From: a virus
DNA length: 64,000 nucleotides
IMG/VR virus record: IMGVR_UViG_2784746786_000001
Location: 9,339-73,338 of that record
Reading direction: 5' to 3' (one strand)
Numbering within the stretch: position 1 is the stretch's first letter; every line of letters starts with the position of its first letter. The position numbers and the translations under genes were made by a program. Positions 1,058-43,277 of this stretch are shown here, piece by piece. The notes beneath the pieces were generated by a model. That model was not told where the DNA came from and searched no databases. It saw nothing but the letters and a program-made list of their open reading frames with translations.

Positions 1058-1078
1058 CTTGATAATTCTATTTATAAT

Positions 1079-1107
1079 CCAATGGAGAAAAATATGTGAT
1101 TTTGACG
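1079..1107 (-). promoter_or_regulatory. Bipartite motif copy C (CGTCAAAA-N14-CCATTGG) upstream of SHOCT/recombinase
   Basis: Same two boxes and identical 14-nt spacing as the copies at 1212-1240 and 5553-5581. Confidence 0.65.
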
Positions 1108-1127
1108 AGGTCGGCCAAAATATTTTT

Positions 1128-1162: not shown

Positions 1163-1211
1163 GTTTCCTTATAATTACGAGGATGAGCTTTTGAAAAAAT
1201 TGAAGCTATTT

Positions 1212-1240
1212 CGTCAAAAGTCGAATTTCAAGACCAGTGG
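1212..1240 (+). promoter_or_regulatory. Bipartite motif copy A (CGTCAAAA-N14-CCAGTGG) upstream of the recombination/replication operon
   Basis: Seen directly; about 50 nt upstream of the ATG at 1290. Confidence 0.65.
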
Positions 1241-1289
1241 ATATTGTAAGGAGCACACAGGATAAATGCTCCGACAGGAGGTGACGCGA

Positions 1290-5545: not shown

Positions 5546-5552
5546 ATTGTTT

Positions 5553-5581
5553 CGTCAAAATCTGAAAAACATCTCCAGTGG
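5553..5581 (+). promoter_or_regulatory. Bipartite motif copy B (CGTCAAAA-N14-CCAGTGG) upstream of the primase operon
   Basis: Seen directly; lies just after the polA stop codon. Confidence 0.65.
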
Positions 5582-5611
5582 TTTATATAGAGAGGTGGTA
5601 GATTGCATAGG

Positions 5612-11046: not shown

Positions 11047-11439
11047 GTGCCGAAGAGACCAAAGAAACCCTGTGCGTATCCTGGCTGCCCAAGACTGACG
11101 GATGAACGCTACTGCGAGGAACATAAAAAGCTCGCTGTCAAACAATACGATAAGTACGGTCGTAGCCCTGAAGTCAAGAAAAGATATGGCTGGCAGTGGC
11201 AGAAGGTCAGGCGTGCATTCCTCGCCAAGCATCCGCTCTGCGAGATGTGCGAGAAGGAGCATCGGCTGACGAAAGCTACCGAGGTTCATCACATCCTGCC
11301 GCTGTCTGCTGGCGGGACAAGTGACGAGGACAACCTCATGCCGCTGTGCAAAGTCTGCCATTCCAGGATCACAGCAAAGACTGGCGGCAGATGGTCAAGG
11401 GGAGGGGGAGGTAAAATCTCCCAAAGCCCGCGAAGCTAG
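11047..11439 (+). CDS. Terminase-associated HNH endonuclease
   Basis: CAYPGC..YCEEH, HPLCEMC, VHHILP..GG...NLMPLCKVCH. Confidence 0.9.
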   Translation: MPKRPKKPCAYPGCPRLTDERYCEEHKKLAVKQYDKYGRSPEVKKRYGWQWQKVRRAFLAKHPLCEMCEKEHRLTKATEVHHILPLSAGGTSDEDNLMPLCKVCHSRITAKTGGRWSRGGGGKISQSPRS

Positions 11440-11480
11440 ACCGGACATAGGGTCACGCGCACAAAAATTGGGAATCAAAC
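11395..11480. other. Probable cos packaging region
   Basis: G-rich tract and GGTCACGCGCACAAAAA between HNH and terS, the usual position in HK97-like cos phages. Cut site not determined. Confidence 0.4.
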
Positions 11481-11509
11481 GGGGGATTAACCCCATTGGA
11501 GGTGATGGC

Positions 11510-12073
11510 ATGGCGAAAGACGGTACGAATCGCGGCGGCAGGCGCGCACGGTCTGGCGTGAAATCTGGTGCGCTGGCAGACAAGATAGCTGCCGGGAAGG
11601 CAGCAACCGTGCTTGACCTTCCCGTTGTCGAACTGCAGGGTACAGACCTTGGAGAAGCCGCTGACCTGCAAGGGGAGGATATGCCGAATCCCAGTGACTA
11701 TCTGTCAGCCAGGCAGCGTGATGGCAGCCCGCTCGGCGCAGATGAAATCTTCAGGGAAATATGGCAGTGGCTGAAAGAGCGCGGCTGTGAGAGACTGGTA
11801 AATCCACGTCTGTTGGAAAGCTATGCGCAGGCCTTTGCTCGTTTTATCCAGTGTGAAGATGCCATCAGCACCTATGGCCTGCTGGGGAAGCATCCGACAA
11901 CCGGCGGTGTGATCACCAGCCCGTTTGTGCAGATGAGCCAAAGTTTTCAAAAGCAGGCGAATATGCTGTGGTATGAGATTTTTGATATCGTCAAGCAGAA
12001 CTGCACGGCATCATTTACGGACAATCCGCAGGATGACATGATGGAACGGCTGCTTCGTGGGCGCAGAAAATAA
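11510..12073 (+). CDS. terS: Terminase small subunit (P27 family)
   Basis: MAKDGTNRGGRR; LESYAQAFARFIQCE; GFLGKHPTT-like LLGKHPTTG. Confidence 0.85.
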   Translation: MAKDGTNRGGRRARSGVKSGALADKIAAGKAATVLDLPVVELQGTDLGEAADLQGEDMPNPSDYLSARQRDGSPLGADEIFREIWQWLKERGCERLVNPRLLESYAQAFARFIQCEDAISTYGLLGKHPTTGGVITSPFVQMSQSFQKQANMLWYEIFDIVKQNCTASFTDNPQDDMMERLLRGRRK

Positions 12074-28400: not shown

Positions 28401-29173
28401 GGATTGCGCTTGAAAGCAGTGATGCCAATGACGCGATGTTCCTTGAAGGACAGCAGGAGCTGGCAAAAGAATATGTAGAGCTTTGGAAGGCATCACATAA
28501 GACGGTGCAGAGCTATGCGGCTACCCTTGCGGCAAATGTAAATCAGACTATGGCAGACAGCTTCAAGGAATTTATTCAGGGAACGAAATCTGCTATGGAT
28601 TTGGTACATGATTTTGGGCGTGTTGTGCTGAATACCATCGCTGAGATAGTTGCCAAGCAAGCTGCATCTCAGCTGGTAGGCTCGCTCTTTAAGTCATTTA
28701 AATTGTTCAGCGATGGCGGTGAGATAAACGGCTATGCATCTGGCGGAGCACTTGCCGGCGGCAGTATCAATGGAGCTGGCACAGGGACCTCAGACAGTAT
28801 TCTTGCCTACCTGGAGCAGACGGGGCAGTTTATCCGTCTTTCTGACGGTGAGTTTGTCATGACTGCTGAGGCTACGAAGAAAAACAGACCAATGCTGGAG
28901 GCGATGAATGCCGGTGCCTTTAAAAATGGCGGTTCAATTTCAGCTCCAGCGATTAGAAGTGCTAGTGCAGACAGCAGCTATGGCAGCTCGGCATCAGCAC
29001 CCAAGGGCGGTGTCATTGTCAATATTACCAACAATACCAACAGCGAGGTCACGGCAAAGCAGAGCGGCTTTGAGCAGTCTACACAGCGGTACATCCTGGA
29101 CATTGTGATTGACGGCGCACAGCGGAATGTGAATGGCTTTGGCAATAACCTGAAAGCAGTAATGGGGGGATAA
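25439..29173 (+). CDS. Tape measure protein with internal NlpC/P60-like domain
   Basis: MSVISSLMVKIGADSS start, Ala-rich helical body, ENTCAIFAS...GGHVGIY, and C-terminal GGSINGAGTGTSDSI..LSDGEFV. Confidence 0.9.
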   Translation: MSVISSLMVKIGADSSGLKKGLDEAKTAVEKSFDTNPVSKFSAHVEDTGKRMEGLIGRMKTFAAVAAAGFGLSALVNDAAAAGDNIYRLSQRMHISAGEAGNLSRIMSLTGGDVTSLSTAMMRLDKSFTSASTEGEKTRSILAAVGVELTNANGQLLPINEQLKGLAAGYKKATEAGYGQELIMNTLGVRGMALVSTLEQYNDAAETAGKVKTIGLDAKGMHELNMQLKIMQMESSQIQLALVAGFAPVVNEFLPGIMSGLQSTVTFLRENKTEIATVTKAAVEFYAAMKAISLIGSAGAGILSFWNSIKVAAVQTAVVQETAEAELSAAQIKHINKVVARSQQAYTKREIDAIRAAQQEGLASDEARAKLETNLVAIQLEAEKSAASISAAFTRHFMEVNRAAAVMAAETNTAIASTGVTAAEAIAVQTTATANLTAAHMAEGTAATVAGAKNTAAKGAATKATAAQIVATGQLTAAHVAEGTAAAAAGVKSISFTGTAIKGVRTLGTAVLALTGGWIGLAAAIAYAGYCLYQYKNEQFAEEKAHTYSVDGENYIEKDGYFYRKGTGRVLNPEALNSGYVNDEEIEYDTGGQLVSDDSLNEKLQSAWWERHKDDADYKAQLEKEEADERLRNADSELAALMQNMNSAGSTESSGGSAEKQPVTYQVAVPIGEDIVGSALNHIGESWGENTCAIFASSMLEEAGVYGLSDPNGDNMKANAGAAYHDVNDGYQPKAGDIIEWGGHVGIYDGNGGYIASNTKTGIHQGSMAEAEDWFGPVQGYISTAEYTGNKTVTKTMDSEAKAAEDSLQKLNKAKEDATKLFNSMEIEIGRETKTDYSYGMDQLEANIRKKQVEINQLKTAGVDTTMLESELADYGAALKSKVVEKWQEASESIKNTTAITLAETNSDYKAAAEAQYQMTLTKLSKERKDKEKAVLKDKDDAEGRLAIDKWYVAESNKAMKELTKAKNESFNRAISDFQSLGDLKNIRIALESSDANDAMFLEGQQELAKEYVELWKASHKTVQSYAATLAANVNQTMADSFKEFIQGTKSAMDLVHDFGRVVLNTIAEIVAKQAASQLVGSLFKSFKLFSDGGEINGYASGGALAGGSINGAGTGTSDSILAYLEQTGQFIRLSDGEFVMTAEATKKNRPMLEAMNAGAFKNGGSISAPAIRSASADSSYGSSASAPKGGVIVNITNNTNSEVTAKQSGFEQSTQRYILDIVIDGAQRNVNGFGNNLKAVMGG

Positions 29174-29174
29174 T

Positions 29175-29534
29175 ATGCGTACATTTCCAGATATAGAGCC
29201 GAATATTCCAGCGGCAAATTCCTGTGGAGACAGCTACAAAATGTCTATAACGGACAGTACGATTTCAACGACTACGGATGCCAACTATAAACACACCAGA
29301 CCACGAGCCACGAGAATGCTGGAATCGTGGTCGTTTTCCTGGGTTGCGCTCTCGGCTGAGGAGTTTAATGTCATCACCTCATTTTTCCGCGAGGTTGGCA
29401 CCTTTGAGCAGTTTTTATTCAAAAATCCTATCGATGGCAAGGCATATACCGTTCGGTTTGCTGAGGCGATGAAGGACTGGCAGTACGTCTACCCTTACGG
29501 CTGGCAGGGCAAGCTGTCTTTTGAGGAGGTCTAG
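29175..29534 (+). CDS. Distal tail protein (lambda gpM-like)
   Basis: Follows the tape measure gene; FLFKNP..GKAYTVRF...LSFEEV. Confidence 0.65.
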   Translation: MRTFPDIEPNIPAANSCGDSYKMSITDSTISTTTDANYKHTRPRATRMLESWSFSWVALSAEEFNVITSFFREVGTFEQFLFKNPIDGKAYTVRFAEAMKDWQYVYPYGWQGKLSFEEV

Positions 29535-29536
29535 CT

Positions 29537-30121
29537 ATGCAGGTATGGTCACAGGCGGCAACGCTTGCAAAGAATGCACTCACCAATGACGGTGCGTTCC
29601 TTATTTTTCTTGAGATAAGATATTATGGGCTGGCAACAGTAAGACTGGTGCGAAATACAGATGATGTAAAATGGCAGGGCGTCACCTGGACGAGGTTTCC
29701 CTTTGCGCTTGAAACGTCATCTGAGGATGGCAAAACTATCCCGTCCATGAATCTTCAAATCTCAAACTGTCAGGGCATGATTCAGCAATACCTGCAAAAG
29801 TACAATGGCTTTTGTGATGCTGATGTAAAAATCATGGTGGCTTACAGTAAAAATCTAGAGAATCCTAATCCTGAGTTTGAGCTGGACTATATAGTGCAGT
29901 CATCGAGCTATGATGAGGAATGGATAAAGTTCACGCTTTCTGCCAGCAGTGAGTTAATCAACCGATATCCGCAAGGTAGGTACATAGCAGATTTTTGCCC
30001 GTTTCGCTGCGGAGATATACGCTGCGGTTATACGGGAAATGATGTCTGTGTGAATACGCTGAAAAGCTGCCAGGTGCCAAGTCGCTTTGGCGGTGAACCA
30101 GGCATGACGACTACAAGATGA
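29537..30121 (+). CDS. Minor tail protein (lambda gpL/DUF1833-like)
   Basis: WTRFPFAL; C-terminal Cys cluster CPF.C...CGY...C...C. Confidence 0.65.
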   Translation: MQVWSQAATLAKNALTNDGAFLIFLEIRYYGLATVRLVRNTDDVKWQGVTWTRFPFALETSSEDGKTIPSMNLQISNCQGMIQQYLQKYNGFCDADVKIMVAYSKNLENPNPEFELDYIVQSSSYDEEWIKFTLSASSELINRYPQGRYIADFCPFRCGDIRCGYTGNDVCVNTLKSCQVPSRFGGEPGMTTTR

Positions 30122-30135
30122 TAAAGGAGGATAAG

Positions 30136-30525
30136 ATGCAGTATACAGATTTAATCGGTGTTCCGTTTAAGGACGGCGGCAGAGACAAAAATGGTCTGGA
30201 TTGCTGGGGACTGGTGAAAATATTACTAGAGCGTCAGGGCTATAAGTATATTCAGGACTACGATATATCCGCCTTTAACATCAAGGACATCCATGATGAG
30301 CTGGAAACAAACCGTCATACCTGGCGAAAAATAGAAAAACCAGAGGTGGGCTGTGTAATACTTTTAGCCAATGGCTGCACAGCGGCCGCAAACCATGTCG
30401 GCATTGTGGTGGATGATAGTAGGTTCATCCACGCCTATGCACGGACTGGTGTATGTGTTTCTACGCTGAAACGCTGGCAGGCACATATTCTTGGCTTCTA
30501 TCTGCCACCGGAGGTGATAACATGA
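30136..30525 (+). CDS. NlpC/P60 tail-assembly peptidase (lambda gpK-like)
   Basis: GGRDKNGLDCWGLV; NHVGIVVDDSRFIHA. Confidence 0.85.
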   Translation: MQYTDLIGVPFKDGGRDKNGLDCWGLVKILLERQGYKYIQDYDISAFNIKDIHDELETNRHTWRKIEKPEVGCVILLANGCTAAANHVGIVVDDSRFIHAYARTGVCVSTLKRWQAHILGFYLPPEVIT

Positions 30526-33500
30526 TTCAGATTATTGTTGTAGAAAATCCCTTGGAACCTAAAATCCATGAAACCTATGATGCCTATTATTCAGGCAAAG
30601 ACATCCGTTCCTACTATAACGTGACCGAGGCAAATAGTGTGTTTCTGAATGGTCAGCGGGTAAAAGATATGGATGGCACAATACCACAGGACGGAAGTCA
30701 GCTCATCATAACGCCATGTGTTGCTGGTGGTGACTTCGGTAAAATTCTAGGCTTTGTGGCAATGGTCGCATTGACGGCATGGAGCGGGGCCATTCTTGGT
30801 GGTAGTGGTGTCTTTGGAATGGCGATTAAGGGATATACCTTCGGTGCGTATCTTGCCGCGGGTGCGGTGATGTATCTGGGCGGACGGCTTATAAACAGTG
30901 TCTTTCCGCAGCAGGCGGCCAATGTGGGTTGGCATGACTATGAGAAATCGCAGACCTACGGCTGGGATTTACCGACAGTTCAGACGATGGAAGGCGGTGT
31001 CATTGGCGAAACCTATGGCACCTGTATTCCGCAGCCGCAGCTTTTAGAGGAGCACGTTGAAACAAGCGACCAGGACGGCAAGCAGTACCTAAATCTCTTG
31101 TACTGCGGCGGCTATGGTGAAATTGACAGCATCACAGATATTCGTATCGATAGTACACCTATAGAGAATTATAGCAATGTCCAGCTTGAGACACGGCTTG
31201 GCACTAATGACCAGACGCCAATCAGTTTCTTTACTAATACACCGACAGACCAGTCTGTGGGGCTGATGCTGGATATAAATCAGCCGCTTATCCGTACCAC
31301 AAATAGTACAGCGGCCTGCTCACTGGAGATTACGCTGGAGTGGAATAACGGTCTGTATCATCTGAATGATGACGGCAGCTACAGCAACGCCAGCATTTCC
31401 ATTCAAGTAGAATATAAAAAAACAGGTATCCCGGATTGGACACTCTCGGGAAAATACACCTTCACAAACAGCAGCCCGGATGCCTTTAGACGCTCGGTCA
31501 AGATTGCCAGCAATATCGAGGCGGGGCAGTATGATGTCAAGGTCACGGCAGTCAGTAAGGATTCTGGCAGCCGCAACATGACCATCACCTATTGGTCGAT
31601 TCTCACCTCGTACAATAATGGCGTCTATGTCAGACCAAACAAGGTGCTGGTGGCCATGCGAATACTGGCAACGAATCAGCTCAGCGGCGGTGTGCCAAAT
31701 ATCAACTGGCGGCAGACCCGCTCGAAGGTTTATGTTTATAACCCAAAGAAAAGTCAGTACGAGGTCAAGGCAGCGGATAATCCTATCTGGGCTGCCTATG
31801 ATATTTTGCATGGCTGCCGCTATCTCAAGAATCTCAACACCGGCAAGAAAGAGTACGTGGTGTTTGGTTGTCAGCATCAGCAGCTTGATGCGTACTTCGA
31901 ACAGTGGTGTGAGTCAGCAGCCTATGCAGATGAGCTGGTTCCGGATGAATACGGCGAGTTTGAAAAGAGGTATCTCTTTGATGCTTACTTCGATACCAGT
32001 CAGAAACGCTTCGAGGCAGCTACCAAAGCGGCTGCGGTAGGTCATTCCAGCATCATCATCCACGGCACGAGATATGGCATCGTAACAGATAAGCCGGGGA
32101 TGATTTCGCAGGTATTTGCTGAGGGCAGGACAACGGTATCCTCGGTCAAAGGTACCTTTACCTCCAAGGAAGAAAGAGCCAAGTCCGTAGAGCTTCAGTA
32201 CAATGACCGCCACAATGACTTTAAGAACACAGTGTTCACGCTGCGGTCTAAGGATTGGGCAAGCGAGGACTGTCAGGACAATACGGCACAGCTGACTTTG
32301 TTCGGTGTAAGCCGGAGAAGCCAGGCATACCGCGAGGGCGTCAGAGCACTTGCCACCAATGAACGCCAGCTGCAGTTCGTGGAGCTTTCCACGGATATTG
32401 ATGGCCTGGTCTGTGAATATGGTGATATTGTCGGCTATGCCCATACCATTTCAAGAGTCGGCATTGCCTCTGGCAGGCTCATTTCGGCTACAGCAAATAC
32501 CATTACCTTGGATAAGGCGGTGACACTGGATGCGGGCAAGACCTATGAAATCTACGTAACGCTCGCCAATGATAAGCTGGAAAAGAAGGAAGTCGCAGCG
32601 CCTATGCAAACTATCACCACAGATACGCTGACCGTGACGGCTGCATTTTCTGACGTTCCAGCACAGTATGATAACTACGCCTTTGGCGAAACCAACAAAG
32701 CCATCAAGCCATACCGGGTAGTCGGAGCGTCTCGTGATGGCGAAATGCTGGTTCAGCTCCAGCTTGCTGAATATGACGAATCTATCTATGCTACGGATAT
32801 AAACTACGACCGCTACCCGCATATGGATTACACTAATTATGCTGGTCTCAGCGGGGACAAAATCCAGTCTGAGGTGGCGGATTCTCTGGAGATAAACAGC
32901 CGCACCAATTATGTAAAGACAGAGGACGGCTATCAAATAATCATTACGAAAAAAGAGCCGGACAATATCACCTATACTTTTCCAACTGAGCCGGATGTTA
33001 TAGCCAATGGTCTCTTAAATATCTCGTTCGGCTCACGCGTTAGGACACTTGGCTATTATCGCCCGAATGATGGCGGCGGGGCAGAATACATCTGCCGCTA
33101 TATTTATGATCCGCAGAATCATCCGTGGGCGCTTTACCTGGGTGAATCTGCGGAATACGAATACAAGGTGGTCACCGACGTTTCGGGCATCCCAATGACG
33201 AATGTCAGCGGCGATTATGTCTATGAAACAGACAGCGAAGGGAAAATGGTGGTTAATACCGATGAGTTTGGCAATCCTAAGCGCCGTAAGATTTATGCGG
33301 TGATATGTGAAAAAGTAGTCAACTATCGGATGTTTGGGGCAAAGCTGGATGGCGTTACAGACGATTACCAAGCCATCAAGGACTGCCATGATTACCAAAT
33401 GAGCTGCTATGAGATTGAGCCGGAAAGCAAGCGCAAGCATTATCTGGTAAGCGTAGAAAATCATCAGGGCATTATAAGAAAGGACAATAATGAGCCAATC

Positions 33501-36500
33501 ACCTGTGCTGGGAACATCGATATTTCTGGCAGCAAGCTCTTAGTGCAGGACTGCAATGCTACCTGGTTTGGTTTTTACCTTTGGGGAGATAATGAAGGGG
33601 ACTTCATGACCTATGAGCCGCTGTACGAAACGAAGGAAACCTACCAGAAGGATAATTTCGTTATTGGGACAGAGGGAAAGCTCAGTCAGCTGGGAAACAA
33701 CTCGCTAATGTTCCTGAAGGAATCCAGCTATGCGGTGCGTGATGATGCCGGGTATCTCTATTCTGAGCCACGTTATGAATTGCTTTTCCACACCATGGAT
33801 GGAATCCTTGCCAATCCCATCACCTATGACTGGTCGATTGCTGGCGGTCTTGAAATAAAGACGCCAGTCTCAGACTATGTGACGCATGAGGTATCCACGG
33901 AGACGATAAACAGCCAGTTCGAGCTGTCCTATACACGGCTGCCAAATGCCCATTACAACTTTAAGGGCTGCCAGGTAAGGTTTGAGACCTCGGCAAATAA
34001 ATACTGTTCAGTGCTGTGGTGCAAATGCCATAACGCCCATGTATCTGGCTTCAGCTTTTATCCCGACACCAATCAGATGCATAACACGGTATTCAAAAAT
34101 ACCATGATTTATATGTGGGGCTGCTACAATGCGGAGGTCTCAGATATTACCGGTTTCAATAACTCCGGCAAAAGAGAGAATGGTGTTGATGCGACTTCTG
34201 GCTATGTCATACGTGCCACGAACTGTCTGAACCTCCATATCCATGACTGCCATGTGCAGGGCTATTGGGGGGCAACGGCAATGAATTGCGTGAAGGACGT
34301 GCATATTGAGCGTGTAAGCATCAACCGTCTGGATATCCATAACTATTTCTATAATCTCTACATCGATCACTGCAACCTTTTCAATCATGCCATTCAGATT
34401 GGTGAGGGCAGAGGCATCTGTCAGATTACCAATAGCTGCTTTTACGTCAATTCACTTCCAGCCGACAGCTACCCTCATGCCCATATCCTGGAGCTGAATG
34501 CCACCTATGGACGGATATTCGAGGGCAAGATTCTCATAGATAACTGCAAGGCTTATTTGAAGGATGCAGAGGGAGGTGAGTTCGATGTCATAAAATGCGA
34601 GTTTTCACCGGAGGCTGTTTCGACCTTGGATACATTCAAGTGGCCGGAAACGACTATCCGGGAATGTAACTTCTTCTCGTATAACCCAGGAACCTATCTT
34701 GTGTACAATATGGTATCCGGTACTCGAAGCTGCAGGACTTCGACCAAGGCACCGACTAATGTCAAGGACTGGTGCAAAGATACAGGCAATGCGGATAGCG
34801 GCAAGCTCAACTGGAAATATCTCGGCCGCGGCCTTGACTGGGTGAATGACGGCAATACCGCAAATCATGAGGTGTACAAGGGCGAGATCATCCGCACCTA
34901 TAAGACAACCATGACCAGTGATAATAAGACCGCCTTCTATGACAGGCATTATTTCGTGGTGGTGCAGGCGGGAAACCTGAACATCGCGGAAAAGCTCGAG
35001 ACGAATATGCCAAGCGATTTATCCGGCAATGAATTTACCTATGGCACAGCAATCCTAAGGTATGTGAAATGGTATGAATGGCAGGCAAATAAAAGCTATG
35101 TTGTTGGGGATTTCTGTTATGTGGAAAGCTCCATGTGGCTGCCGGTTTATTCGTGGGAGTGTGTTTCTGCAGGACTGTCCAATGGCTATCGCCCTGCACA
35201 TACAGTGGGAACGGTGATCGAGGGCGAAGATATCTATCCGAAGAATCTCGATGCTTGCTGGTGGACGTATGCTGGACCAAAGGCAGATTTCGTGAATGTC
35301 GAATTCAAGCCGAATATGACAGTTGAAAAAGGCCAAATCATCTATGCTGACCATAAGCTTTACAATGTTTTAGAGGCAGGAAAGCTGGATGCTATACCAC
35401 CGCAGAATACGGCATGGAATGGCTCTTTTAAGCATGGCACGGCAATGCTGTCCTTTATCGGCAAGGAATGGTCGAGCAAGACCTGGTGGGCCAAGAATCA
35501 CTACTGCATATCCGTTGACCGTAATGGTACTGAAGCAGTCTATAAGCTGGTCAAGCAGGACGGTACGACCTCCGGAGAATCACCAGTACGTGGAAATGCC
35601 CGCTGTGTGGATGGCGATATCATCTGGGAATGGACTTCAAGCGGGGATGACGGAAGTGCCTGGCTGCCGCAGACACGCTACAACGTAGGCGATATAGTTC
35701 ATGCCAATGGGAATACCTATAAGTGTGTATTCGATGGCAGGCTTGAAATGCCATCACATATTATTCTTGAAAACATCTCAACCAATATGACAGTTGGCGG
35801 AGATGTTTTTGCTTTCTATGAAGGAGGTACGGATGTACCCATAAGAACCAATTACTCTGGTAAGTGGACAATAAAGGTCGATAACGTGGAGCGGTATAGG
35901 TTCCGAGATTTTGCTGATGGATATTTTGGTGTCAGCTCGAATCCGCTGCCGACGATATATGGCTCTGGCGGCAGTTTGTCTGAGGGCTACAGCAAGACGG
36001 AGGTAGATGTGCTGCTTTCGGGCAAAGCAAATAAAGCTGCTGTCTACACCAGAGAGGAAATAGACAGGCTGCTTTCCGGCACTGAAGATGGCAAGGCTGA
36101 TGAGACTAGCTATACGAAGGCTCAGGTGAATGCACTCCTAGCCAAGAAAGCTGACCTAGAGCATGAACACAGCGAATATGCAACTGTGGCGGCTCTTGAT
36201 AAGAAGCTCGATGCTGACGATCTACGTATCCATGCCAGCCGTCATATCGGTACCCATGATGTGGATGAAGCAGGACTGGCTGATGGCATGGCTATGTATT
36301 ATGATGCAGCATCCAAGACCTACAAATTCAAGAAGGTCACGGCAGCAGATGAACCAGAAATCGACCCGCCAGCAGAGGATAAGGTGCCGCTCCAAACTAT
36401 CATCTACACGAAATCTGTTTACTGCGATAAGACCTTTACGTCCCAAGAAGCTGATGCGGATTACCAGTTCACCATTCCAGAGGGGGCAGAGAAGTTCCGT

Positions 36501-37187
36501 GTGGTTGCTGTTCCAGCTACTAGCGTGAGTATATCTGCAGATACTTATATTGAGTTTGTGAATGCCGATGGAACGCTGGCAAAGAAAGTCAGCTGGTCTG
36601 AGGTGTCCGCTGATGGCATTATTGCTGACTGTACTGTTGGCAAGACCTATGCCTTCAAGTGTTCCATTACAACAAGCGGTGCGACAACGATTGCACTCTA
36701 CGTTGATTGCGGTGAGAAGATCAACCAGCTCGTGGCCAATACTTCGAATGTTCCTGCGCTCGATAGCAAGAAGGTAGAAGAGCCGCCGATAGAGGATGCT
36801 GTGCCACTGACTGTTTTGGCTACCAAGACACTTACGGCCAGTGGCTCTGGTACAGAGTATGCGTGTGAGGATTGGTCAGCGGGCAGTGAGTTCCAATTTA
36901 CGATTCCCGTTAGTGTGACGAAATTCAGGTTCTCAGTAACGCCTGCAGATGCAACAGCAAGAATCAGCAATGCAGATGTTACCTTTATCGATGCCGATTG
37001 GAACGCACAGGTAAAGATCAAGGCGCAAACGCCAGCCGTGCTAAGCTGCATAAAGGGGAAGACCTATGCTTGGTGTATCTGGGTAGGTACGAATATGAAG
37101 ACAGATGTTATTTGTAAGGTAGAGGTTGGCGGTGAGGTCGAGACTTCGGCTGTGACCGAGGCAACGGTAATACCTGCCTATAGCTGA
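30522..37187 (+). CDS. Tail-tip hub (lambda gpI/gpJ-like) fused to tailspike/beta-helix and carbohydrate-binding modules, 2221 aa
   Basis: Ubiquitin-like N-terminus, GETYG..GGYGEID, DNPIWAAYDILH, RMFGAKLDGVTDD (pectate-lyase-like start), W...T.Y.VGD repeats and tandem C-terminal domains. Confidence 0.85.
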   Translation: MIQIIVVENPLEPKIHETYDAYYSGKDIRSYYNVTEANSVFLNGQRVKDMDGTIPQDGSQLIITPCVAGGDFGKILGFVAMVALTAWSGAILGGSGVFGMAIKGYTFGAYLAAGAVMYLGGRLINSVFPQQAANVGWHDYEKSQTYGWDLPTVQTMEGGVIGETYGTCIPQPQLLEEHVETSDQDGKQYLNLLYCGGYGEIDSITDIRIDSTPIENYSNVQLETRLGTNDQTPISFFTNTPTDQSVGLMLDINQPLIRTTNSTAACSLEITLEWNNGLYHLNDDGSYSNASISIQVEYKKTGIPDWTLSGKYTFTNSSPDAFRRSVKIASNIEAGQYDVKVTAVSKDSGSRNMTITYWSILTSYNNGVYVRPNKVLVAMRILATNQLSGGVPNINWRQTRSKVYVYNPKKSQYEVKAADNPIWAAYDILHGCRYLKNLNTGKKEYVVFGCQHQQLDAYFEQWCESAAYADELVPDEYGEFEKRYLFDAYFDTSQKRFEAATKAAAVGHSSIIIHGTRYGIVTDKPGMISQVFAEGRTTVSSVKGTFTSKEERAKSVELQYNDRHNDFKNTVFTLRSKDWASEDCQDNTAQLTLFGVSRRSQAYREGVRALATNERQLQFVELSTDIDGLVCEYGDIVGYAHTISRVGIASGRLISATANTITLDKAVTLDAGKTYEIYVTLANDKLEKKEVAAPMQTITTDTLTVTAAFSDVPAQYDNYAFGETNKAIKPYRVVGASRDGEMLVQLQLAEYDESIYATDINYDRYPHMDYTNYAGLSGDKIQSEVADSLEINSRTNYVKTEDGYQIIITKKEPDNITYTFPTEPDVIANGLLNISFGSRVRTLGYYRPNDGGGAEYICRYIYDPQNHPWALYLGESAEYEYKVVTDVSGIPMTNVSGDYVYETDSEGKMVVNTDEFGNPKRRKIYAVICEKVVNYRMFGAKLDGVTDDYQAIKDCHDYQMSCYEIEPESKRKHYLVSVENHQGIIRKDNNEPITCAGNIDISGSKLLVQDCNATWFGFYLWGDNEGDFMTYEPLYETKETYQKDNFVIGTEGKLSQLGNNSLMFLKESSYAVRDDAGYLYSEPRYELLFHTMDGILANPITYDWSIAGGLEIKTPVSDYVTHEVSTETINSQFELSYTRLPNAHYNFKGCQVRFETSANKYCSVLWCKCHNAHVSGFSFYPDTNQMHNTVFKNTMIYMWGCYNAEVSDITGFNNSGKRENGVDATSGYVIRATNCLNLHIHDCHVQGYWGATAMNCVKDVHIERVSINRLDIHNYFYNLYIDHCNLFNHAIQIGEGRGICQITNSCFYVNSLPADSYPHAHILELNATYGRIFEGKILIDNCKAYLKDAEGGEFDVIKCEFSPEAVSTLDTFKWPETTIRECNFFSYNPGTYLVYNMVSGTRSCRTSTKAPTNVKDWCKDTGNADSGKLNWKYLGRGLDWVNDGNTANHEVYKGEIIRTYKTTMTSDNKTAFYDRHYFVVVQAGNLNIAEKLETNMPSDLSGNEFTYGTAILRYVKWYEWQANKSYVVGDFCYVESSMWLPVYSWECVSAGLSNGYRPAHTVGTVIEGEDIYPKNLDACWWTYAGPKADFVNVEFKPNMTVEKGQIIYADHKLYNVLEAGKLDAIPPQNTAWNGSFKHGTAMLSFIGKEWSSKTWWAKNHYCISVDRNGTEAVYKLVKQDGTTSGESPVRGNARCVDGDIIWEWTSSGDDGSAWLPQTRYNVGDIVHANGNTYKCVFDGRLEMPSHIILENISTNMTVGGDVFAFYEGGTDVPIRTNYSGKWTIKVDNVERYRFRDFADGYFGVSSNPLPTIYGSGGSLSEGYSKTEVDVLLSGKANKAAVYTREEIDRLLSGTEDGKADETSYTKAQVNALLAKKADLEHEHSEYATVAALDKKLDADDLRIHASRHIGTHDVDEAGLADGMAMYYDAASKTYKFKKVTAADEPEIDPPAEDKVPLQTIIYTKSVYCDKTFTSQEADADYQFTIPEGAEKFRVVAVPATSVSISADTYIEFVNADGTLAKKVSWSEVSADGIIADCTVGKTYAFKCSITTSGATTIALYVDCGEKINQLVANTSNVPALDSKKVEEPPIEDAVPLTVLATKTLTASGSGTEYACEDWSAGSEFQFTIPVSVTKFRFSVTPADATARISNADVTFIDADWNAQVKIKAQTPAVLSCIKGKTYAWCIWVGTNMKTDVICKVEVGGEVETSAVTEATVIPAYS

Positions 37188-37207: not shown

Positions 37208-37645
37208 ATGGTTTTATGGACAACTACAGAACTGAAGACAGGAACCCTATTCGGGCTACTGTGGGGGCTGCTGAATCTAATGCTGGGAGGCATTGATGCA
37301 CCGATACTTGCACTGAGCGGCCTGATCATGCTCGATTTCCTGACGGGCATTACAGCCGCCTATAAAAATGCAGAACTCAATTCCCGTACAGGAGCTGCCG
37401 GTCTTATGCGTAAGGCCGGTATCTTTGTCTGCATTATTATCGCCTATCTTCTGGACACTGCTACGGGGTTGATGATGTTTCGGGGAATGGTGATTACAGG
37501 CTTTGCCATCATTGAGGTCATGAGCCTGGTCGAGAACTTCGACCGCATGGGCTATGGCGAGATTATTCCCGTGTTTTTGCGGATACATCTGCAAAAGATT
37601 GCCGCTGAGAAGAACTTAAAAGTAAAGGAGTCTGATGACAAATGA
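37208..37645 (+). CDS. Holin (phage holin 4_1-like)
   Basis: Hydrophobic segments; LDFLTGI..A..S..G..G..RK...D; EVMSLVEN..RMG. Confidence 0.85.
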   Translation: MVLWTTTELKTGTLFGLLWGLLNLMLGGIDAPILALSGLIMLDFLTGITAAYKNAELNSRTGAAGLMRKAGIFVCIIIAYLLDTATGLMMFRGMVITGFAIIEVMSLVENFDRMGYGEIIPVFLRIHLQKIAAEKNLKVKESDDK

Positions 37646-38181
37646 AGATTTTTATCAATCCAGGGCATGCGCCAAACGGTCAGCCGGATCCAGGTGCCTG
37701 CAATAAATATACTGGGCTGCAGGAAAGTGAGGTGGCATTCTGTGTAGGTGAGAAGACAGCAGATTATCTTAATGCTGTCGGCATCGAGACGGAAAGTTTG
37801 CAGTCGGATAGTTTGGCGGAGGTATGTATTGCGGCAAATGCCAGCGGAGCAGATTTTTTTATTTCCGTCCATTGCAATAGCGCCAACACAACTTCCGCCA
37901 ATGGCACAGAAACCTGGGCATGCGCAGGCTCGGCTGAGGGAAGGAAGCTTGCCCAGTGCATCAATGACCAGATTGTTGACGCTCTTGGCACCACTGACCG
38001 CGGGGTGAAGATTGCCGCGCCAGGAATCAACGGCTTGTATGTTCTCAGCAATACAGATATGCCGGCGGTGCTCGTAGAGCTTGCTTTCATCTCGAATGCT
38101 GAGGATGTGGTGCTTCTTACCGAGCAGCAGGATGAGTTTGCCCGAGCCATTGCCCGTGGTGTGACGGATTATTTCAATTGA
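37642..38181 (+). CDS. Endolysin, N-acetylmuramoyl-L-alanine amidase, copy 2
   Basis: NPGH, ESE, SVHCN and LVELAF motifs; coupled to the holin. Confidence 0.9.
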   Translation: MKIFINPGHAPNGQPDPGACNKYTGLQESEVAFCVGEKTADYLNAVGIETESLQSDSLAEVCIAANASGADFFISVHCNSANTTSANGTETWACAGSAEGRKLAQCINDQIVDALGTTDRGVKIAAPGINGLYVLSNTDMPAVLVELAFISNAEDVVLLTEQQDEFARAIARGVTDYFN

Positions 38182-38684: not shown

Positions 38685-39080
38685 GGAATTGCTGATAAAT
38701 CAACAGTTTCCAATCATTGATTTATCCACAAGTCGATTTTTGAAATTAACTTGCATTAAATTCATTAATCGATGCTTTGGGCACATCCATTCTCCGGCCT
38801 TTCTGATTTAGGGAGGTATTTCCCTAAATCTAGACAAACCTATCCAAGGACTGCACCAAATTCTTTCTGTCGTCCAGCCCTTATGCACAGTACCAGATTT
38901 GCTGAAGCAAACAACAGTTGAAACATCTGGTAGTTCTTTTTCAATCCACGGTATTTTGTTTTCCTGCATTTGAAAAAATTCTTTATGATGTGGAATGGAT
39001 GCTCTACTTTACAACGTATGGAAGATTTTTCATGCTCAATCAGTTTATCCCAGTTCATCCCTTCATAAATTTCTGTCAAG
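38685..39080 (-). mobile_element. IS5-family remnant (3' transposase fragment and right end)
   Basis: SSIRCKVEHPFHIIKNFFKCRKTKYRGLKKN; end sequence TTTATCAGCAATTCC next to TTAA. Confidence 0.75.
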
Positions 39081-39412
39081 TGATTCTGGGACGGACGCTT
39101 GGCAACGCGAAAATCTACGCAGTATGATCCGAAAATTCTTGGCAAAAATGGTATAGTCGACCCATTGTCGCTTGCTATAGCGTTGCAGGATTCAGCAGAT
39201 GAGAGAGTAGAGCAGGTAATCGACGAGATGTTGACGAAGGTTTTTGGGGGAAAAAATTAAGATGGTAGGTGGATTTACCAGATTTAAATAGTGGTTCAAG
39301 GGTTTTGAAGAAGAATGAGATTATTGATATGAAACAGCTCGGTTTGCGTGGGATGACAAAAGACGATGCGCTGCTAATATACAAAAAGTTGTACACACCT
39401 AGTATCGGATAG
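39081..39412 (+). pseudogene. Remnants of a probable type IV TA-like pair (regulator C-terminus plus internally deleted nucleotidyltransferase-like gene)
   Basis: YDPKILGKNGIVDPLSLAIALQDSADERVEQVIDEML*, then MVGGFTRFK*WFKGFEE joined out of frame to IDMKQLGLRGMTKDDAL. Family recognised from memory only. Confidence 0.4.
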
Positions 39413-39428
39413 AATACAGAAATGAATG

Positions 39429-39473
39429 AAGCCGGAGCACTGGAGGATTGATTCCTCGGTGCTCCGGCTTTTT
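39429..39473. terminator. Strong hairpin terminator between convergent units
   Basis: AAGCCGGAGCAC..GAGGA-TTGAT-TCCTC..GTGCTCCGGCTT followed by TTT. Confidence 0.8.
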
Positions 39474-39477
39474 GCGT

Positions 39478-40002
39478 TTATAGCAGGTCAGGGAACTCCT
39501 GACGTAAGGTTTTTCTGGCCTTTTCTAATCGAGATAAAAGTGTCGTGCGGGGAATACCGAGCTGCTTGGCTATGGCAGTATCGCTTATGCCACTCTCCTG
39601 CGCGATGATGATATCGTGGCCACCAGGTAAAAGCTCGTCCAAACGCTGGAATAACTCTTGTAGCAAAATAGAATCTATGGCCTGGTCGATAGTAGCCGTG
39701 CTGCTTTCAGTGCTGAGTGTGTCGAGCAGAGTTGGCGTTTCGCCATCAATGCCTTGATACTCATAGTTTAGAGAAAGGCAATTCCCAGCGCGATGAAATT
39801 CACAGCTAAGGCAATCGCTATCACATAGCCACCATTTCTGGCGAGTGCATACGCATTGTCCTTGGTCTTGCATCTTTTTGCGGACGGTTCTGTTGGAATT
39901 GACGAAGTAGCGATATACTTCCTTCGAGACTACATTCCAGGTACGGGATGGTTTGTCATAGATACGGGGTACGTCTTGAGTCTGAGTGTCGTTGGTTTTC
40001 AT
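39478..40002 (-). CDS. Sigma-70 region-4-like (ECF-type) phage transcription factor with Cys cluster
   Basis: CVC...C..DC..CEF, then C-terminal HTH ISDTAIAKQLGIPRTTLLSRLEKARKTL. Confidence 0.75.
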   Translation of the reverse strand: MKTNDTQTQDVPRIYDKPSRTWNVVSKEVYRYFVNSNRTVRKKMQDQGQCVCTRQKWWLCDSDCLSCEFHRAGNCLSLNYEYQGIDGETPTLLDTLSTESSTATIDQAIDSILLQELFQRLDELLPGGHDIIIAQESGISDTAIAKQLGIPRTTLLSRLEKARKTLRQEFPDLL

Positions 40003-40206
40003 TAGATTGTCTCCTTCCGGCTTTTAAGCCGAAGCGGAGACAACCTGCATTGCTGCCAGATATATTGTTCATACGTTGGTCACCTCATACGGATTGCTCC
40101 GCCTCAAATTGGTGACCAGCCGTTCGTTAAGCTGGCACTGTATATTCAATTTCTTCCATCCATCAGCTACGAACACACTACCCGGCCGGGATAATAGTGA
40201 GCTGAT
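40003..40206 (-). ncRNA. Candidate structured cis-regulatory leader of the sigma-like gene
   Basis: Several nested stems, including a GCAA tetraloop hairpin and a stem (TTGTCTCC/GGAGACAA) that sequesters the RBS. Confidence 0.5.
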
Positions 40207-40430
40207 TTCAGGAAAAGTAGTTTTATGCCTTGCTTAGGGCGGAATAATTTTTGTTTAGATAAGTCTTACCTGTTAGTACATTTAGATTGTAGTTCAAACA
40301 TTAGGCATAAGCTAACGAGTCTTGTGACTATATATATTCTTGAAGAAGTAGGCGCAAATACTGGTAAAATAAAAGCATTCGTAGTAGAATGTTGTTATGC
40401 ACATAAGCATATTTTATTCGAATTGAGAAT

Positions 40431-41051
40431 ATGGAGAACGATGTGGCGATGGAACTAGATATTTTAAAGGAACGTTTGCGAGAAACTTTTGGTGATGATT
40501 CGCAAGAAATAGTGGGTGGAAAACTAAATATGACCCAGGGTAATGTGAGTAGATTGCTATCTGGCTCTCAACAGCCGACTCCGGATACGCTCTATCGAAT
40601 TGCCGAAGTATATGAGGTATCCATCGACTGGCTAATGGGGCTGTCAAATAATAAGAAAAGAGCCACAGCAAAAGAAAAAACTTCTTATGCTGTGGCAGTT
40701 GAAATGCTAATGCAGTTGTACCAGCATGGTAGTAATATTGAATTTAAGAGTTCTGGCTACGAGCTAAAGCTCAGTATTAAGGATCCGCTTTTAAAGGCCT
40801 TACTAAAAAAGAGCATTACACTCTCGAAAACTGACAAGGAGTTATACCAGAGCTGGAAAGAAATGAAGCTTTCTCTTTTTAATGATAAGTCGCTGGTTTA
40901 TCAAAAAATGTGGCAGGATAATGATGTTGGCTTTCTAGCAGGAGAAGCTACTGCAGAAGCACATTGGCTTGAAGTATATAATTTAGCAAAGGCTAAGGAA
41001 GCAGAATATGCTGAAATGATGGGCGATGCCCCTGGCCCGTTTGGAGGTTGA
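40431..41051 (+). CDS. XRE-family HTH protein 1
   Basis: SQEIVGGKLNMTQGNVSRLLSGSQQPTPDTLYRIAEVYEVSIDWLMG. Confidence 0.85.
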   Translation: MENDVAMELDILKERLRETFGDDSQEIVGGKLNMTQGNVSRLLSGSQQPTPDTLYRIAEVYEVSIDWLMGLSNNKKRATAKEKTSYAVAVEMLMQLYQHGSNIEFKSSGYELKLSIKDPLLKALLKKSITLSKTDKELYQSWKEMKLSLFNDKSLVYQKMWQDNDVGFLAGEATAEAHWLEVYNLAKAKEAEYAEMMGDAPGPFGG

Positions 41052-41055
41052 TATT

Positions 41056-41754
41056 TTGGATGATCTTAGACAAATAATAAAAGATCGCCTATCAAAAACC
41101 TTTAGCGGGAATACTCAGGAAGTGACTGCACGTAAGCTGAACACAACACAAGGAAATGTGAGTAAATGGGTTAACGGTACTCAGATTCCGACCCCAGATA
41201 TGCTGCTGGAAATTTCTAAAGCATATAAGGTCTCGGTGGACTGGTTGCTGGGTATCAGTGAACAACGAGAGATCGATGGTCTCGTTGTTGAAAAACTAAC
41301 ATATGAGCATATCGCGAGGGTTTTAGATAAACTGATTGAAAACAATACAATTGAAATACCAGATCTGGTTGTGATGGCGAACGAGAATGGCCTCAGTTCT
41401 ATTGCAGAAGATGATGTCGAAGATGAAGAAGAATCTATCACAAAGGAATCAGTATTCGATCCTGATTACATAAAAATTAAGGACCGACTGCTTTCCTACA
41501 TAATGCGAAGGCGTTATAAACTTGCATCAATTGATTTGGAAATGTTCGATGAGTGGAAGGAAAAACTGAATAATTTTCAGGGACTAAGGCTTCTTGCTTA
41601 TAACGAAAAAGTGGAAGCGGCAATCGATTATAAAAGTCCAGCGCAATTTAAAGATGGTGATTGGGTTGAACTGGTACGTTATTTATCGACAATGACAACA
41701 GAAGAGTTACATCAACTCGTAGAAGAATTAAAGAAAAAGGATGGGACAAACTAA
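41056..41754 (+). CDS. XRE-family HTH protein 2
   Basis: TQEVTARKLNTTQGNVSKWVNGTQIPTPDMLLEISKAYKVSVDWLLG; TTG start with GGAGG RBS. Confidence 0.85.
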   Translation: MDDLRQIIKDRLSKTFSGNTQEVTARKLNTTQGNVSKWVNGTQIPTPDMLLEISKAYKVSVDWLLGISEQREIDGLVVEKLTYEHIARVLDKLIENNTIEIPDLVVMANENGLSSIAEDDVEDEEESITKESVFDPDYIKIKDRLLSYIMRRRYKLASIDLEMFDEWKEKLNNFQGLRLLAYNEKVEAAIDYKSPAQFKDGDWVELVRYLSTMTTEELHQLVEELKKKDGTN

Positions 41755-43277
41755 TGGCAGAAAAGAATACAGCCGACATCGGTTTTGAAAAAGAAATATG
41801 GGATGCGGCCTGTGTACTTAGAGGAAATATGGATGCATCAGAATACAAGAACGTTATCCTTGGCCTTATTTTCTTAAAGTACATTTCCGATAGCTTTGAA
41901 AGTAGATACCAAGAGTTACTTAATGAAGGCGATGGGTTTGAGGAAGATAGAGATGAGTATACTTACAAGAATATTTTCTTTGTTCCAACAGGTGCTCGCT
42001 GGAAAGATATTGCAGATAAAGCGCATACTCCTGAAATTGGAACAACTATCGACAATGCAATGATTGCTATAGAATCTGAAAACAAAAAATTAAAAGGAAT
42101 TCTACCTAAGAATTTTGCTCGTCCCGAATTAGATAAGAGAAGACTAGGAGAAGTCGTTGATTTGTTCACCAATGTTCAAATGGCAGATGGTGCGGACGAG
42201 AAAGATTTACTTGGTAGAACTTATGAATATTGTCTTCGTAACTTTGCTGAACAGGAGGGGAAAAATGCTGGACAATTCTATACACCATCCTGTGTTGTAA
42301 GAACCATTGTTGAAATCCTACAGCCATTCAATGGTCGTGTATATGATCCTTGCTGTGGAGCTGGCGGTATGTTTGTTCAGTCTGCAGGGTTTGTAAAGAA
42401 TCATCAGGGTAATATTAATGACATTTCTGTTTATGGTCAGGAGTCAAATCCTACCACATGGAAGATGGCAAAGATGAATCTTGCAATAAGAGGAATAGAT
42501 TGTAATTTAGGTGAAATTCCAGACGATACCTTTTTAAATGACCAGCATCCAACAATGCGTGCCGATTTTGTGATGGCAAATCCACCATTCAATCTAACTC
42601 CTTGGGGAGCTGACAAATTAAAAGAGGATCAACGCTGGAAGTATGGAATGCCACCAGCAGGAAATGCCAACTTTGCATGGATTCAGCATATGATTTGGCA
42701 TTTATCACCAAACGGAAAGATGGGCATGGTCCTTGCAAATGGATCACTTTCATCTCAAACGGGTGGAGAGGGAGAAATTAGAAAAAATATCATTGATGCC
42801 AATCTTGTTGAATGCATCATTTCCCTTCCAGACAAATTATTCTACACGACTGGTATCCCAGTTAGCCTTTGGTTTATTAACAAAAATAAAAAGCATCAAG
42901 ATCAGACATTATTCATTGATGCACGAAATATGGGTACTATGGTAACTAGAGCTTTACGTGAGTTAACGGATGGTTCGGATGATCCTCAGAATAACGATAT
43001 AAAAAAGATTGCCGATACCTATGCAGCGTTTATTGAGGGGACTTTAGAAAACGTCTCTGGTTATTGTGCAGTGGTAACGACTGAGAAAATTGCCTCTCAG
43101 GATTATATACTTACACCAGGACGTTATGTTGGAATTGAAGAACAGGAAGACGACGGAGAGCCGTTTGATGAAAAGATGACGAGACTCACAGCTGAACTGT
43201 CAGGAATGTTTGAAAAATCCCATGAACTTGAGGCTGAGATTAAAAAGAAGCTGGGGGCAATTGGGTATGAAATATAA
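41754..43277 (+). CDS. hsdM: Type I R-M methyltransferase subunit
   Basis: LIFLKYISD, GQFYTP, DPCCGAGGMF, NPPF and LTPGRYVG motifs. Confidence 0.95.
   Translation: MAEKNTADIGFEKEIWDAACVLRGNMDASEYKNVILGLIFLKYISDSFESRYQELLNEGDGFEEDRDEYTYKNIFFVPTGARWKDIADKAHTPEIGTTIDNAMIAIESENKKLKGILPKNFARPELDKRRLGEVVDLFTNVQMADGADEKDLLGRTYEYCLRNFAEQEGKNAGQFYTPSCVVRTIVEILQPFNGRVYDPCCGAGGMFVQSAGFVKNHQGNINDISVYGQESNPTTWKMAKMNLAIRGIDCNLGEIPDDTFLNDQHPTMRADFVMANPPFNLTPWGADKLKEDQRWKYGMPPAGNANFAWIQHMIWHLSPNGKMGMVLANGSLSSQTGGEGEIRKNIIDANLVECIISLPDKLFYTTGIPVSLWFINKNKKHQDQTLFIDARNMGTMVTRALRELTDGSDDPQNNDIKKIADTYAAFIEGTLENVSGYCAVVTTEKIASQDYILTPGRYVGIEEQEDDGEPFDEKMTRLTAELSGMFEKSHELEAEIKKKLGAIGYEI

Follow-up and report, generated by a model that had tools for sequence, protein, structure and literature searches.

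In this study, we analysed a 64,000-nucleotide (nt) stretch of viral DNA (IMG/VR virus record IMGVR_UViG_2784746786_000001, positions 9,339 to 73,338; hereafter the window) and concluded that the segment 40003-40240 on its minus strand is probably the cis-acting, two-state leader of the messenger RNA of a sigma-like regulator, off by default. We put the probability of this reading at roughly 0.62. The leader is a divergent, translation-only variant of RF02960 (DUF2800 RNA), a known motif that has so far been an orphan. Its structure, the covariation of its helices, its synteny with the regulator gene, the sequestration of the Shine-Dalgarno sequence (SD) and an alternative complementarity to the sequestering strand were all observed, and the features involved are collected in Table 1. 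An initial annotation, made from the letters of the window, had described a multi-stem leader of about 200 nt that hides the ribosome-binding site of this gene. Such a leader does exist, but the conserved element is longer than described, reaching 5' to about 40240, and it includes two pseudoknots and alternative pairings.

At the gathering thresholds of Rfam, no family matched anywhere in the window. When matches were ranked by E-value, RF02960 aligned with 40049-40212 on the minus strand at 33.6 bits (E = 8.9e-4). The Rfam comparison that the initial annotation had suggested as a check gave in this way a match over the entire model (positions 1-158 of 158), but one that stays under the gathering score of 60.2. 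The helices P1-P4 of this alignment are the stems that the annotation had listed. P1 (model positions 1-51), the AAUA linker, P2, P3 and P4 follow one another in the order of RF02960, so that all helices of the model are present over its full length, and non-pairs occur only in the outer three base pairs of P1 and in one pair of P2. The AAUA columns of the linker are almost invariant in two of our alignments (A4 and A5) and are printed in upper case in the RF02960 consensus. Intermediates also join the window copy to the family, as the pseudoknot PK, the P0/PK0 module and the SD hairpin are common to the canonical members though they lie outside the model. Sub-threshold matches of full length were likewise found in other genomes directly upstream of seven homologues of the sigma-like gene, on the same strand (L021/L008, 30.6 bits; L003, 28.9; L017, 40.3; L019, 35.2; L020, 34.6; L022, 31.5; L016, 28.3).

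The canonical copies have the same neighbour. The most conserved core of the RF02960 consensus retrieved 23 IMG/VR contigs, and in at least 21 of them a member of the Cys-rich sigma-like family is the first gene, starting 101-110 nt past the core, with the DUF2800 gene then following about 550 nt further on. Eight canonical-type loci that were scored with Rfam (seven of the contigs and the genome locus L070) reached 117-161 bits. Because this gene family directly follows both the canonical and the sub-threshold copies, RF02960 is the leader of the Cys-rich sigma-like regulator. Rfam already types the parent motif as cis-regulatory, in agreement with the role that the initial annotation had assigned to the leader. 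The complete Candidatus (Ca.) Heliusvirales genomes PV036449 and PV036425 show divergent lysogeny or cargo genes, the sigma-like gene, two small genes, an exonuclease and a polymerase; by position and size, the exonuclease is probably the DUF2800 gene. The DUF2800 RNA motif is reportedly a discovery of Weinberg and co-workers. It is absent from the main text of Weinberg et al. (2017; PMC5737381), and neither the RNA nor its regulator gene comes up in the paper on Ca. Heliusvirales.

The RNA and the gene stay together where the rest of the operon does not. The DUF2800 gene of the window prophage (1694-2833, 501.6 bits) lies on the other strand than the RNA and about 37 kb away. In L002/L021, which are from a different genus within the same family, RNA and gene are, as in the window, oriented convergently to the lysis genes and stand apart from the DUF2800 operon; the function of the RNA is therefore tied to the sigma-like gene and not to the long operon. 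The same arrangement bears on another reading of the motif. Canonical phages carry the RNA at the start of a multi-kilobase replication operon, where a processive antitermination RNA of the HK022 put or Bacillus EAR type would modify the transcribing polymerase where the long early operon begins. We consider this very improbable, since only one gene, which has its own terminator hairpin and is convergent with the lysis genes, follows the RNA in the window and in L002, and the conserved sequestration of the SD points to translational control of the adjacent gene. Readthrough in a long operon, the mark of put and EAR, has no place in front of the one gene that the window RNA precedes.

The unconstrained minimum free energy (MFE) fold of 39990-40215 (minus strand) reproduced all of the minus-strand stems listed in the initial annotation. 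It has an energy of -78.1 kcal/mol, against -57.4 +/- 4.6 kcal/mol for 200 dinucleotide shuffles (z = -4.54), and none of the 200 shuffles was equally stable. For the comparative analysis, a covariance model was built from 13 canonical and divergent leaders, and it recovered 32 leaders; the members that it found outside its seed stand upstream of the sigma-like gene in every case that was checked. In the alignment of the 32 leaders (A7), 83.4% of the cells were paired and 35 of the 41 pairs had changed on both sides. The covariation score, the paired percentage and the counts of pairs or cells changed on both sides were reached by 0 of 500 shuffles, while the count of further pair types was reached by one of the 500. 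With the partner strand slid out of register, pairing fell to 31-46%. The structure is not a product of chance, because these covariation measures beat the shuffles, and the covariation of the upstream domain bears out the proposal that a conserved and structured 5' leader belongs to the sigma-like gene. RNAalifold, applied to MAFFT alignments, recovered little of the structure but hinted at the pseudoknot.

Across the 32 leaders, the individual helices behave as follows. In P1, all 17 pairs had changed on both sides; P2 (helix 5) was 78% paired with five of its six pairs changed on both sides, and is missing in the L019-L022 group; P3 was 78% paired; and P4 was 90% paired with five of five pairs changed on both sides. 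A further candidate helix, P2a (GGGU/ACCC), was not conserved beyond the canonical group and was dropped. The pseudoknot PK, which joins an internal loop of P1 to the P2/P3 junction, is neither part of our covariance model nor shown in the structure line printed by Rfam, and it was nevertheless 93.5% paired on A7 (5/6 pairs changed on both sides) and 89.7% paired on an alignment made with MAFFT only (A5). Its variants include GCUCAA/UUGAGC, GUUCGC/GCGAAC, AUCCAG/CUGGAU, GUUCAG/CUGAAC and GCUCG/CGAGC, to which we would add CCCAG/CUGGG, by our reading in a register one base off the aligned columns. One close relative of the window sensor (L073:1330-1452) has lost most of P1 and keeps the PK strand GUUCGU, P2, P3, P4 and the SD hairpin.

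The 5' end of the leader contributes a second module. The P0 motif, GUCC-N-GAC(A/G)UUAAAC, occurs in 19 of 31 related leaders, the window included, and always as a single copy per locus. In a MAFFT alignment (A8), P0 was 97% paired, a pair of its stem covarying as U-A, C-G and A-U, and PK0 had 89% of its cells paired with 4/6 pairs changed on both sides; together they were 92% paired. PK0 appears as UGAGCA/UGCUCA, UCGGUA/UGCCGA, CAGGCA/UGCCUG and UGAAC/GUUCA in different leaders, and in the window copy four of its five pairs form. The occurrence of one copy per locus ruled out the P0 motif as a multi-copy promoter specific for the sigma-like protein. In the window, GCAWGRCRTWAAAC has one exact match (40220-40233), and matches with up to two mismatches occur at chance frequency. 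The P0 motif also differs from a bipartite motif that is repeated elsewhere in the prophage and is absent upstream of the leader. That promoter-like motif, TCGTCAAAA-N-CCAGTGGAT, was seen in three copies, at 1067-1108 (minus strand), about 1211-1246 (plus strand) and 5552-5593 (plus strand), which precede the recombinase, replication and primase operons.

The P0 region is also where an antisense transcript would have to end. The initial annotation had considered antisense control. On this reading, as we specify it, a plus-strand RNA from about 40070 to about 40245 would pair with the leader and block or destabilise it; a promoter-like sequence (40037-40066) and a terminator-like hairpin (40226-40241) on the plus strand do bracket the leader, and in L016 the counterpart of this hairpin is directly followed by a U-run on the antisense strand. 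These are, however, weak consensus matches that occur at background frequency (4 promoter-like sequences against 3.1 expected, 2 terminator-like ones against 1.2). The U-run in the window begins 8 nt past the stem, canonical relatives have no A-run at this place, and the hairpin is better explained as a sense-strand element that covaries and has a pseudoknot of its own. P0 was accordingly rejected as a conserved antisense terminator. Antisense control is less likely than a two-state leader, and we regard it as improbable. The accompanying analogy with phage immunity RNAs, such as those of P4 and P1, was not supported either: the complementary segments are intramolecular, and no sign of processing, of action in trans or of repeated target sites was seen, although only intramolecular complementarity was examined and no search aimed at such sites was made.

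Whether the conserved element works as RNA at all may be asked on methodical grounds, as the motif-finding method of Weinberg et al. (2017; PMC5737381) cannot tell motifs of single-stranded DNA from those of RNA. The phage moreover carries its own primase and polymerase module, which a replication or priming signal in single-stranded DNA could serve. The structure, however, is without exception found on the strand that codes for the gene, includes the SD and stops 1 nt short of the start codon. G-U pairs exceed A-C mismatches by 101 to 51, which fits a sense-strand structure. A role as single-stranded DNA is thus one to which we give almost no credence.

The 3' part of the leader buries the SD. 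The annotated stem around the ribosome-binding site does contain GGAG, but this ends 8 nt before the AUG and not 5; its inner hairpin is present too, in the register UUCGGCU/AGCCGGA with a UAAA loop, as the full CGGCUU/AAGCCG pairing would leave a loop of 2 nt. The computed probability that the SD of the window is unpaired is at most 0.001. Sequestration recurs in the family with arm sequences that vary widely among the leaders: of 42 distinct family leaders, 37 have the whole SD within the 3' arm of a hairpin, as against 28 of 115 controls, which are other strong-SD genes of the same loci, the statistics of this comparison being inflated by close kin. The mean dG is -22.9 kcal/mol in the family leaders and -13.4 kcal/mol in the controls. 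A U-run comes after the SD hairpin in 19 of 51 leaders, nearly all of the canonical ones among them, and there the hairpin should therefore also act as a transcription terminator. No U-run follows the hairpin in the window, L016 or L073. Because the platform hairpin of the window copy is without a U-tract, its control should be translational only.

A second pairing partner for the anti-SD arm is present in the sensor domain. UGAGGCGGAG and CUCCGCUUCG can form a duplex of 10 base pairs, two of them G-U. In 27 of 31 leaders, representing about seven independent sequence types, the best hybridisation site of the anti-SD arm within the sensor is this same place, the P3-P4 junction with the 5' strand of P4, with duplex energies of -12 to -26 kcal/mol and a mean z of -3 relative to shuffles. 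Compensatory variants of the candidate anti-sequestor were found as CGAAACGGAG/CUCCGUUUCG, GGAACGGAG/CUCCGUUCC, GAAACGGAGC/GCUCCGUUUC, GGGGCGGGGAG/CUCCGUCCC and AAUGAGGAU/GUCCUCAUU. A plain strand exchange between P4 and the SD hairpin was rejected, as it would not free the SD, and was replaced by the longer pairing that includes the P3-P4 junction. An alternative pairing exists further upstream as well. The local hairpin P2*, which excludes P2 and the base of P3, costs 2.2 kcal/mol when forced (-82.2 against an MFE of -84.4 kcal/mol), and its position is occupied by a local stem of 6-8 base pairs with varied sequence in the non-canonical groups, of only 3-4 base pairs in L010, L012 and L025. 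The leader has in sum the architecture of riboswitch type: a covarying sensor joined to an SD hairpin, a competing P2/P2* pair and an anti-sequestor complementarity.

Considering these results, we propose a plausible model for the leader. In the off state, the thermodynamic default, the sensor would be fully folded (P0/PK0, P1, PK, P2 or P2*, P3 and P4), and the hairpin that pairs GGAG with the anti-SD arm would prevent ribosomes from loading. In the on state, UGAGGCGGAG, a near copy of the SD-bearing arm, would leave P4 and capture CUCCGCUUCG, so that the SD is freed. The exchange between P2 and P2*, together with the two pseudoknots, may set which of the states is taken in answer to a signal, for which a small ligand, a protein (the regulator itself or an XRE protein) or another RNA are candidates. 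In relatives with a U-run the same hairpin would also end transcription, and the window copy would act on translation only. That the leader actually switches, in this direction and upon such a trigger, is what we infer.

Several observations weigh against this two-state model. By nearest-neighbour energies the on state is far less stable than the off state and needs a further factor. The candidate anti-sequestor helix is 90% paired in a 13-sequence MAFFT alignment (A4), with just two pairs changed on both sides; its complementarity is partly trivial, as both segments hold GGAG/CUCC; and the pairing is missing in the subgroup L019, L020, L022 and L021. This subgroup has instead a GC-rich helix with a U-tract, GAGCAUGG/CCAUGCUC, which overlaps the pseudoknot strand and by our reading would bring about a similar competition in another way. 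Close kin are numerous among the 31-32 leaders compared, so the counts given above overstate their independence. Membership of RF02960 by score falls short of the curated 60.2 bits, and roughly half of the homologues found in genomes are preceded by leaders of other types, though these still end in an SD hairpin. Finally, no convincing sigma-70 promoter was recognised upstream of the leader on the minus strand, and no start site is known.

The dominance of the off fold in the computed ensemble, and the fact that no ligand is known, would also agree with a static structure that does not switch and instead has a stabilising role, is processed by an RNase or permanently damps the translation of a toxic or potent regulator. 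Damping alone, however, leaves two covarying pseudoknots, conserved junction sequences, the conserved P2* and a position-specific complement of the anti-SD arm unexplained, and we judge a static role to be improbable. A protein could instead provide the input: the sigma-like protein, by feedback, or a repressor of phage or host would bind the leader and lock the SD hairpin, with no small ligand involved. In line with such a translational operator, the RNA travels strictly with the sigma-like gene even when detached from the operon, a Cys cluster and a helix-turn-helix (HTH) domain could allow the gene product to bind nucleic acid, and two XRE-type regulator genes diverge from the leader. Yet, at 240 nt, with two pseudoknots and conserved nucleotides at its junctions, the leader is more elaborate than protein operators usually are, and RNA binding by the sigma-like or XRE proteins is so far a hypothesis. 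The operator, which we hold to be rather unlikely, is a variant of the two-state leader (the same platform with another input) and not an exclusive alternative to it. A more specific form of the two-state leader is possible, and we put it forward tentatively: the DUF2800 RNA class, the window copy included, would be a riboswitch for a host metabolite or signal that gates translation, and in most members also transcription, of the sigma-like early activator in Ca. Heliusvirales-type prophages.

Table 1. Leader elements, regulated gene and adjoining hairpin, in window positions.
Feature	Position	Strand	Description
Structured leader, whole	40003-40240	-	About 240 nt; conserved part extends 5' to about 40240
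P0 hairpin	40227-40240	-	Stem GCC/GGC with 8-nt loop, CUAAGCAA; 5'-most conserved part of the leader
PK0	40215-40235	-	P0 loop AAGCA (40231-40235) with UACUU (40215-40219), just 5' of P1
P1, hairpin of three segments	40152-40216	-	UUUUCC/GGAAGA, AUCAGCU/AGCUGAU, CAC...GUG with CCCGG/CCGGG tip
P1, middle segment	40200-40206 with 40162-40168	-	AUCAGCU with AGCUGAU; encloses CACUA/UAGUG and CCCGG/CCGGG
PK, 5' strand	40169-40174	-	GUUCGU in the 3' internal loop of P1; pairs with 40122-40127
PK, 3' strand	40122-40127	-	ACGAAC at the P2/P3 junction, which is also the loop of P2*
Single-stranded linker	40138-40151	-	Conserved AAUAU block (alignments A4 and A5, RF02960 consensus)
P2	40132-40137 with 40054-40059	-	UGCCAG with CUGGCA; closes the P3/P4 domain; MFE fold
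P2*, alternative local hairpin	40130-40136 with 40115-40121	-	GCCAGCU with GGCUGGU; excludes P2 and the base of P3
P3	40111-40118 with 40077-40084	-	UGGUCACC with GGUGACCA; encloses P4; MFE fold
P4	40090-40101	-	CGGA-GCAA-UCCG; MFE fold
SD-arm mimic (candidate anti-sequestor)	40097-40106	-	UGAGGCGGAG; spans the P3-P4 junction and the 5' strand of P4
SD-sequestering hairpin	40004-40046	-	AGGUUGUCUCC with GGAGACAAUCU around the inner UUCGGCU/AGCCGGA hairpin
SD	40011-40014	-	GGAG in the 3' arm of the SD hairpin; AUG at 40000-40002
Anti-SD arm (target of the mimic)	40030-40039	-	CUCCGCUUCG; opposite the SD in the SD hairpin
Sigma-like gene	39478-40002	-	174 amino acids; Cys cluster and C-terminal sigma-70 region 4-like domain
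GC-rich hairpin	39431-39468		Directly after the stop codon; followed by a T-run on the plus strand and by TTCATTCATTT on the minus strand

No Pfam family matched the 174-residue product of the regulated gene above threshold; it matches phrog_13787, whose function is not annotated, and weakly a phage sigma PHROG. A word-indexed search found four relatives, and an exhaustive protein search found 498 cluster representatives. In an alignment of 41 family members, C50, C60, C64 and C67 never vary, C52 hardly does, and the HTH domain follows these residues. The family profile matches region 4 of an extracytoplasmic function sigma factor in the PDB (SigW, 5wuq; E = 3e-5), with TIGR02937 staying below threshold. 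The AlphaFold model of the protein (predicted local distance difference test, pLDDT, 90) matched sigma factors weakly overall and the sigma-4 domain 3hug_C well (3.7 A over 79 columns). The label sigma-like holds for the C-terminal half, because both the profile and the model match sigma region 4. The N-terminal half has a CxC-x7-C-x3-C-x2-C cluster, modelled at a pLDDT above 90, and we saw no clear structural relative of it when the whole protein was matched; we take it for a probable metal-binding domain at the place of sigma region 2. The designation of the gene as a master activator in the initial annotation is plausible from its context. The GC-rich hairpin after its stop codon probably serves, judging by its sequence, as a bidirectional terminator between the convergent sigma-like gene and the lysis side, and the gene would therefore be monocistronic.

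The window holds a prophage. A serine recombinase gene (2-769, minus strand) is present, as are replication genes (DUF2800, an Enc34-type single-stranded DNA-binding protein, PolA, a D5-type primase and SNF2) and the gene for the small terminase subunit (11321-12073). Large open reading frames further along, including those of 1244 and 2244 amino acids at 25439-37187, are taken as structural genes by size and position. The lysis side comprises a holin (37208-37645) and an amidase (37642-38181). Between the lysis cassette and the sigma-like gene lies a fragment of a DDE transposase (38840-39145, minus strand), comprising the C-terminal part of the domain only, which may mark a rearrangement that separated the gene from the DUF2800 operon. 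However, the layout is equally convergent in L002, of another genus, whose short flank showed no transposase-like frame. Divergent from the leader, across an AT-rich gap of 190 bp, are two tandem, overlapping XRE-type HTH genes (40431-41754, plus strand; 206 and 242 amino acids), likely the repressor side of a genetic switch. The hsdM gene of a type I restriction-modification system follows them (41754-43277, plus strand), and from the XRE genes rightwards the GC content falls from about 0.49 to about 0.39.

The leader model finds one copy in this genome, copies in 6 of 151 related genomes and none in the four genomes of the same genus that were searched. Such a distribution would be expected for prophage cargo. 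Another conserved leader is found with some homologues of the gene, including that of phage NatCom_35866 (L044:5850-5994 and L018:1250-1330). These leaders share a block of about 50 nt, CCGACCUACCGAACGAUUGGAUAG, have a terminator-like hairpin ahead of the SD hairpin, and could represent another class of leaders, so far undescribed, for this regulator.

RF02960, so far an orphan motif, takes its name from a gene that is several genes further downstream. Our results indicate that its real partner is the sigma-like regulator which heads the early genes of Heliusvirales-type prophages, a very widespread lineage of gut phages. This work assigns the motif to its true partner and adds to its structure two pseudoknots and a helix that is a candidate for switching. 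The motif thereby gains a concrete candidate mechanism, consisting of a two-pseudoknot sensor, a mimic of the SD arm and an SD-sequestering hairpin that in many members would also be a terminator. Should the switch answer a host signal, it would feed into prophage induction at the level of RNA, and if the riboswitch reading is true, the decision between lysogeny and lysis in one of the most widespread lineages of gut phages would be set directly by an RNA that reads host physiology. The window copy, monocistronic and translational only, is a natural minimal version of the system and a handy object for tests.

Phages and bacteria have several RNAs with which the leader can be compared. The CI RNA of P4 and c4 of P1 and P7 are phage immunity RNAs, and HK022 put and Bacillus EAR are antitermination RNAs. 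The window leader resembles P4 CI and P1/P7 c4 in that early or lytic functions of a temperate phage are controlled at the RNA level from the leader of the controlled transcript, through complementary segments. In contrast, the immunity RNAs are processed small RNAs that act in trans, whereas the complementary segments of the window lie in one leader. Like it, put and EAR are structured RNAs which act in cis and with which phage or long operons begin. These act on the processivity of polymerase, whereas the window element is joined to the SD of one gene and persists where this gene is monocistronic.

The thiM thiamine pyrophosphate (TPP) riboswitch and the S-adenosylmethionine riboswitch SAM-II are translational riboswitches with SD-sequestering expression platforms. 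As in these, a pseudoknotted sensor comes first in the window leader and a hairpin that buries the SD comes second, and a segment of the sensor can compete for the anti-SD strand. The window element differs in being larger than most small-molecule aptamers, in a gene context that points to no ligand, and in its target, which is a transcription regulator of a phage and not a metabolic gene. Compared with the canonical members of RF02960, the window copy has a low score (33.6 against the 60.2 bits of the gathering score), a longer P1 and a platform hairpin without a U-tract, and its monocistronic gene is inverted and lies about 37 kb away from the prophage's DUF2800 gene. It shares with RF02960 the match over the whole model, the order of the helices, the phage context and the family of the downstream gene, and with the canonical members also the pseudoknot, the SD hairpin and the logic of the candidate anti-sequestor.

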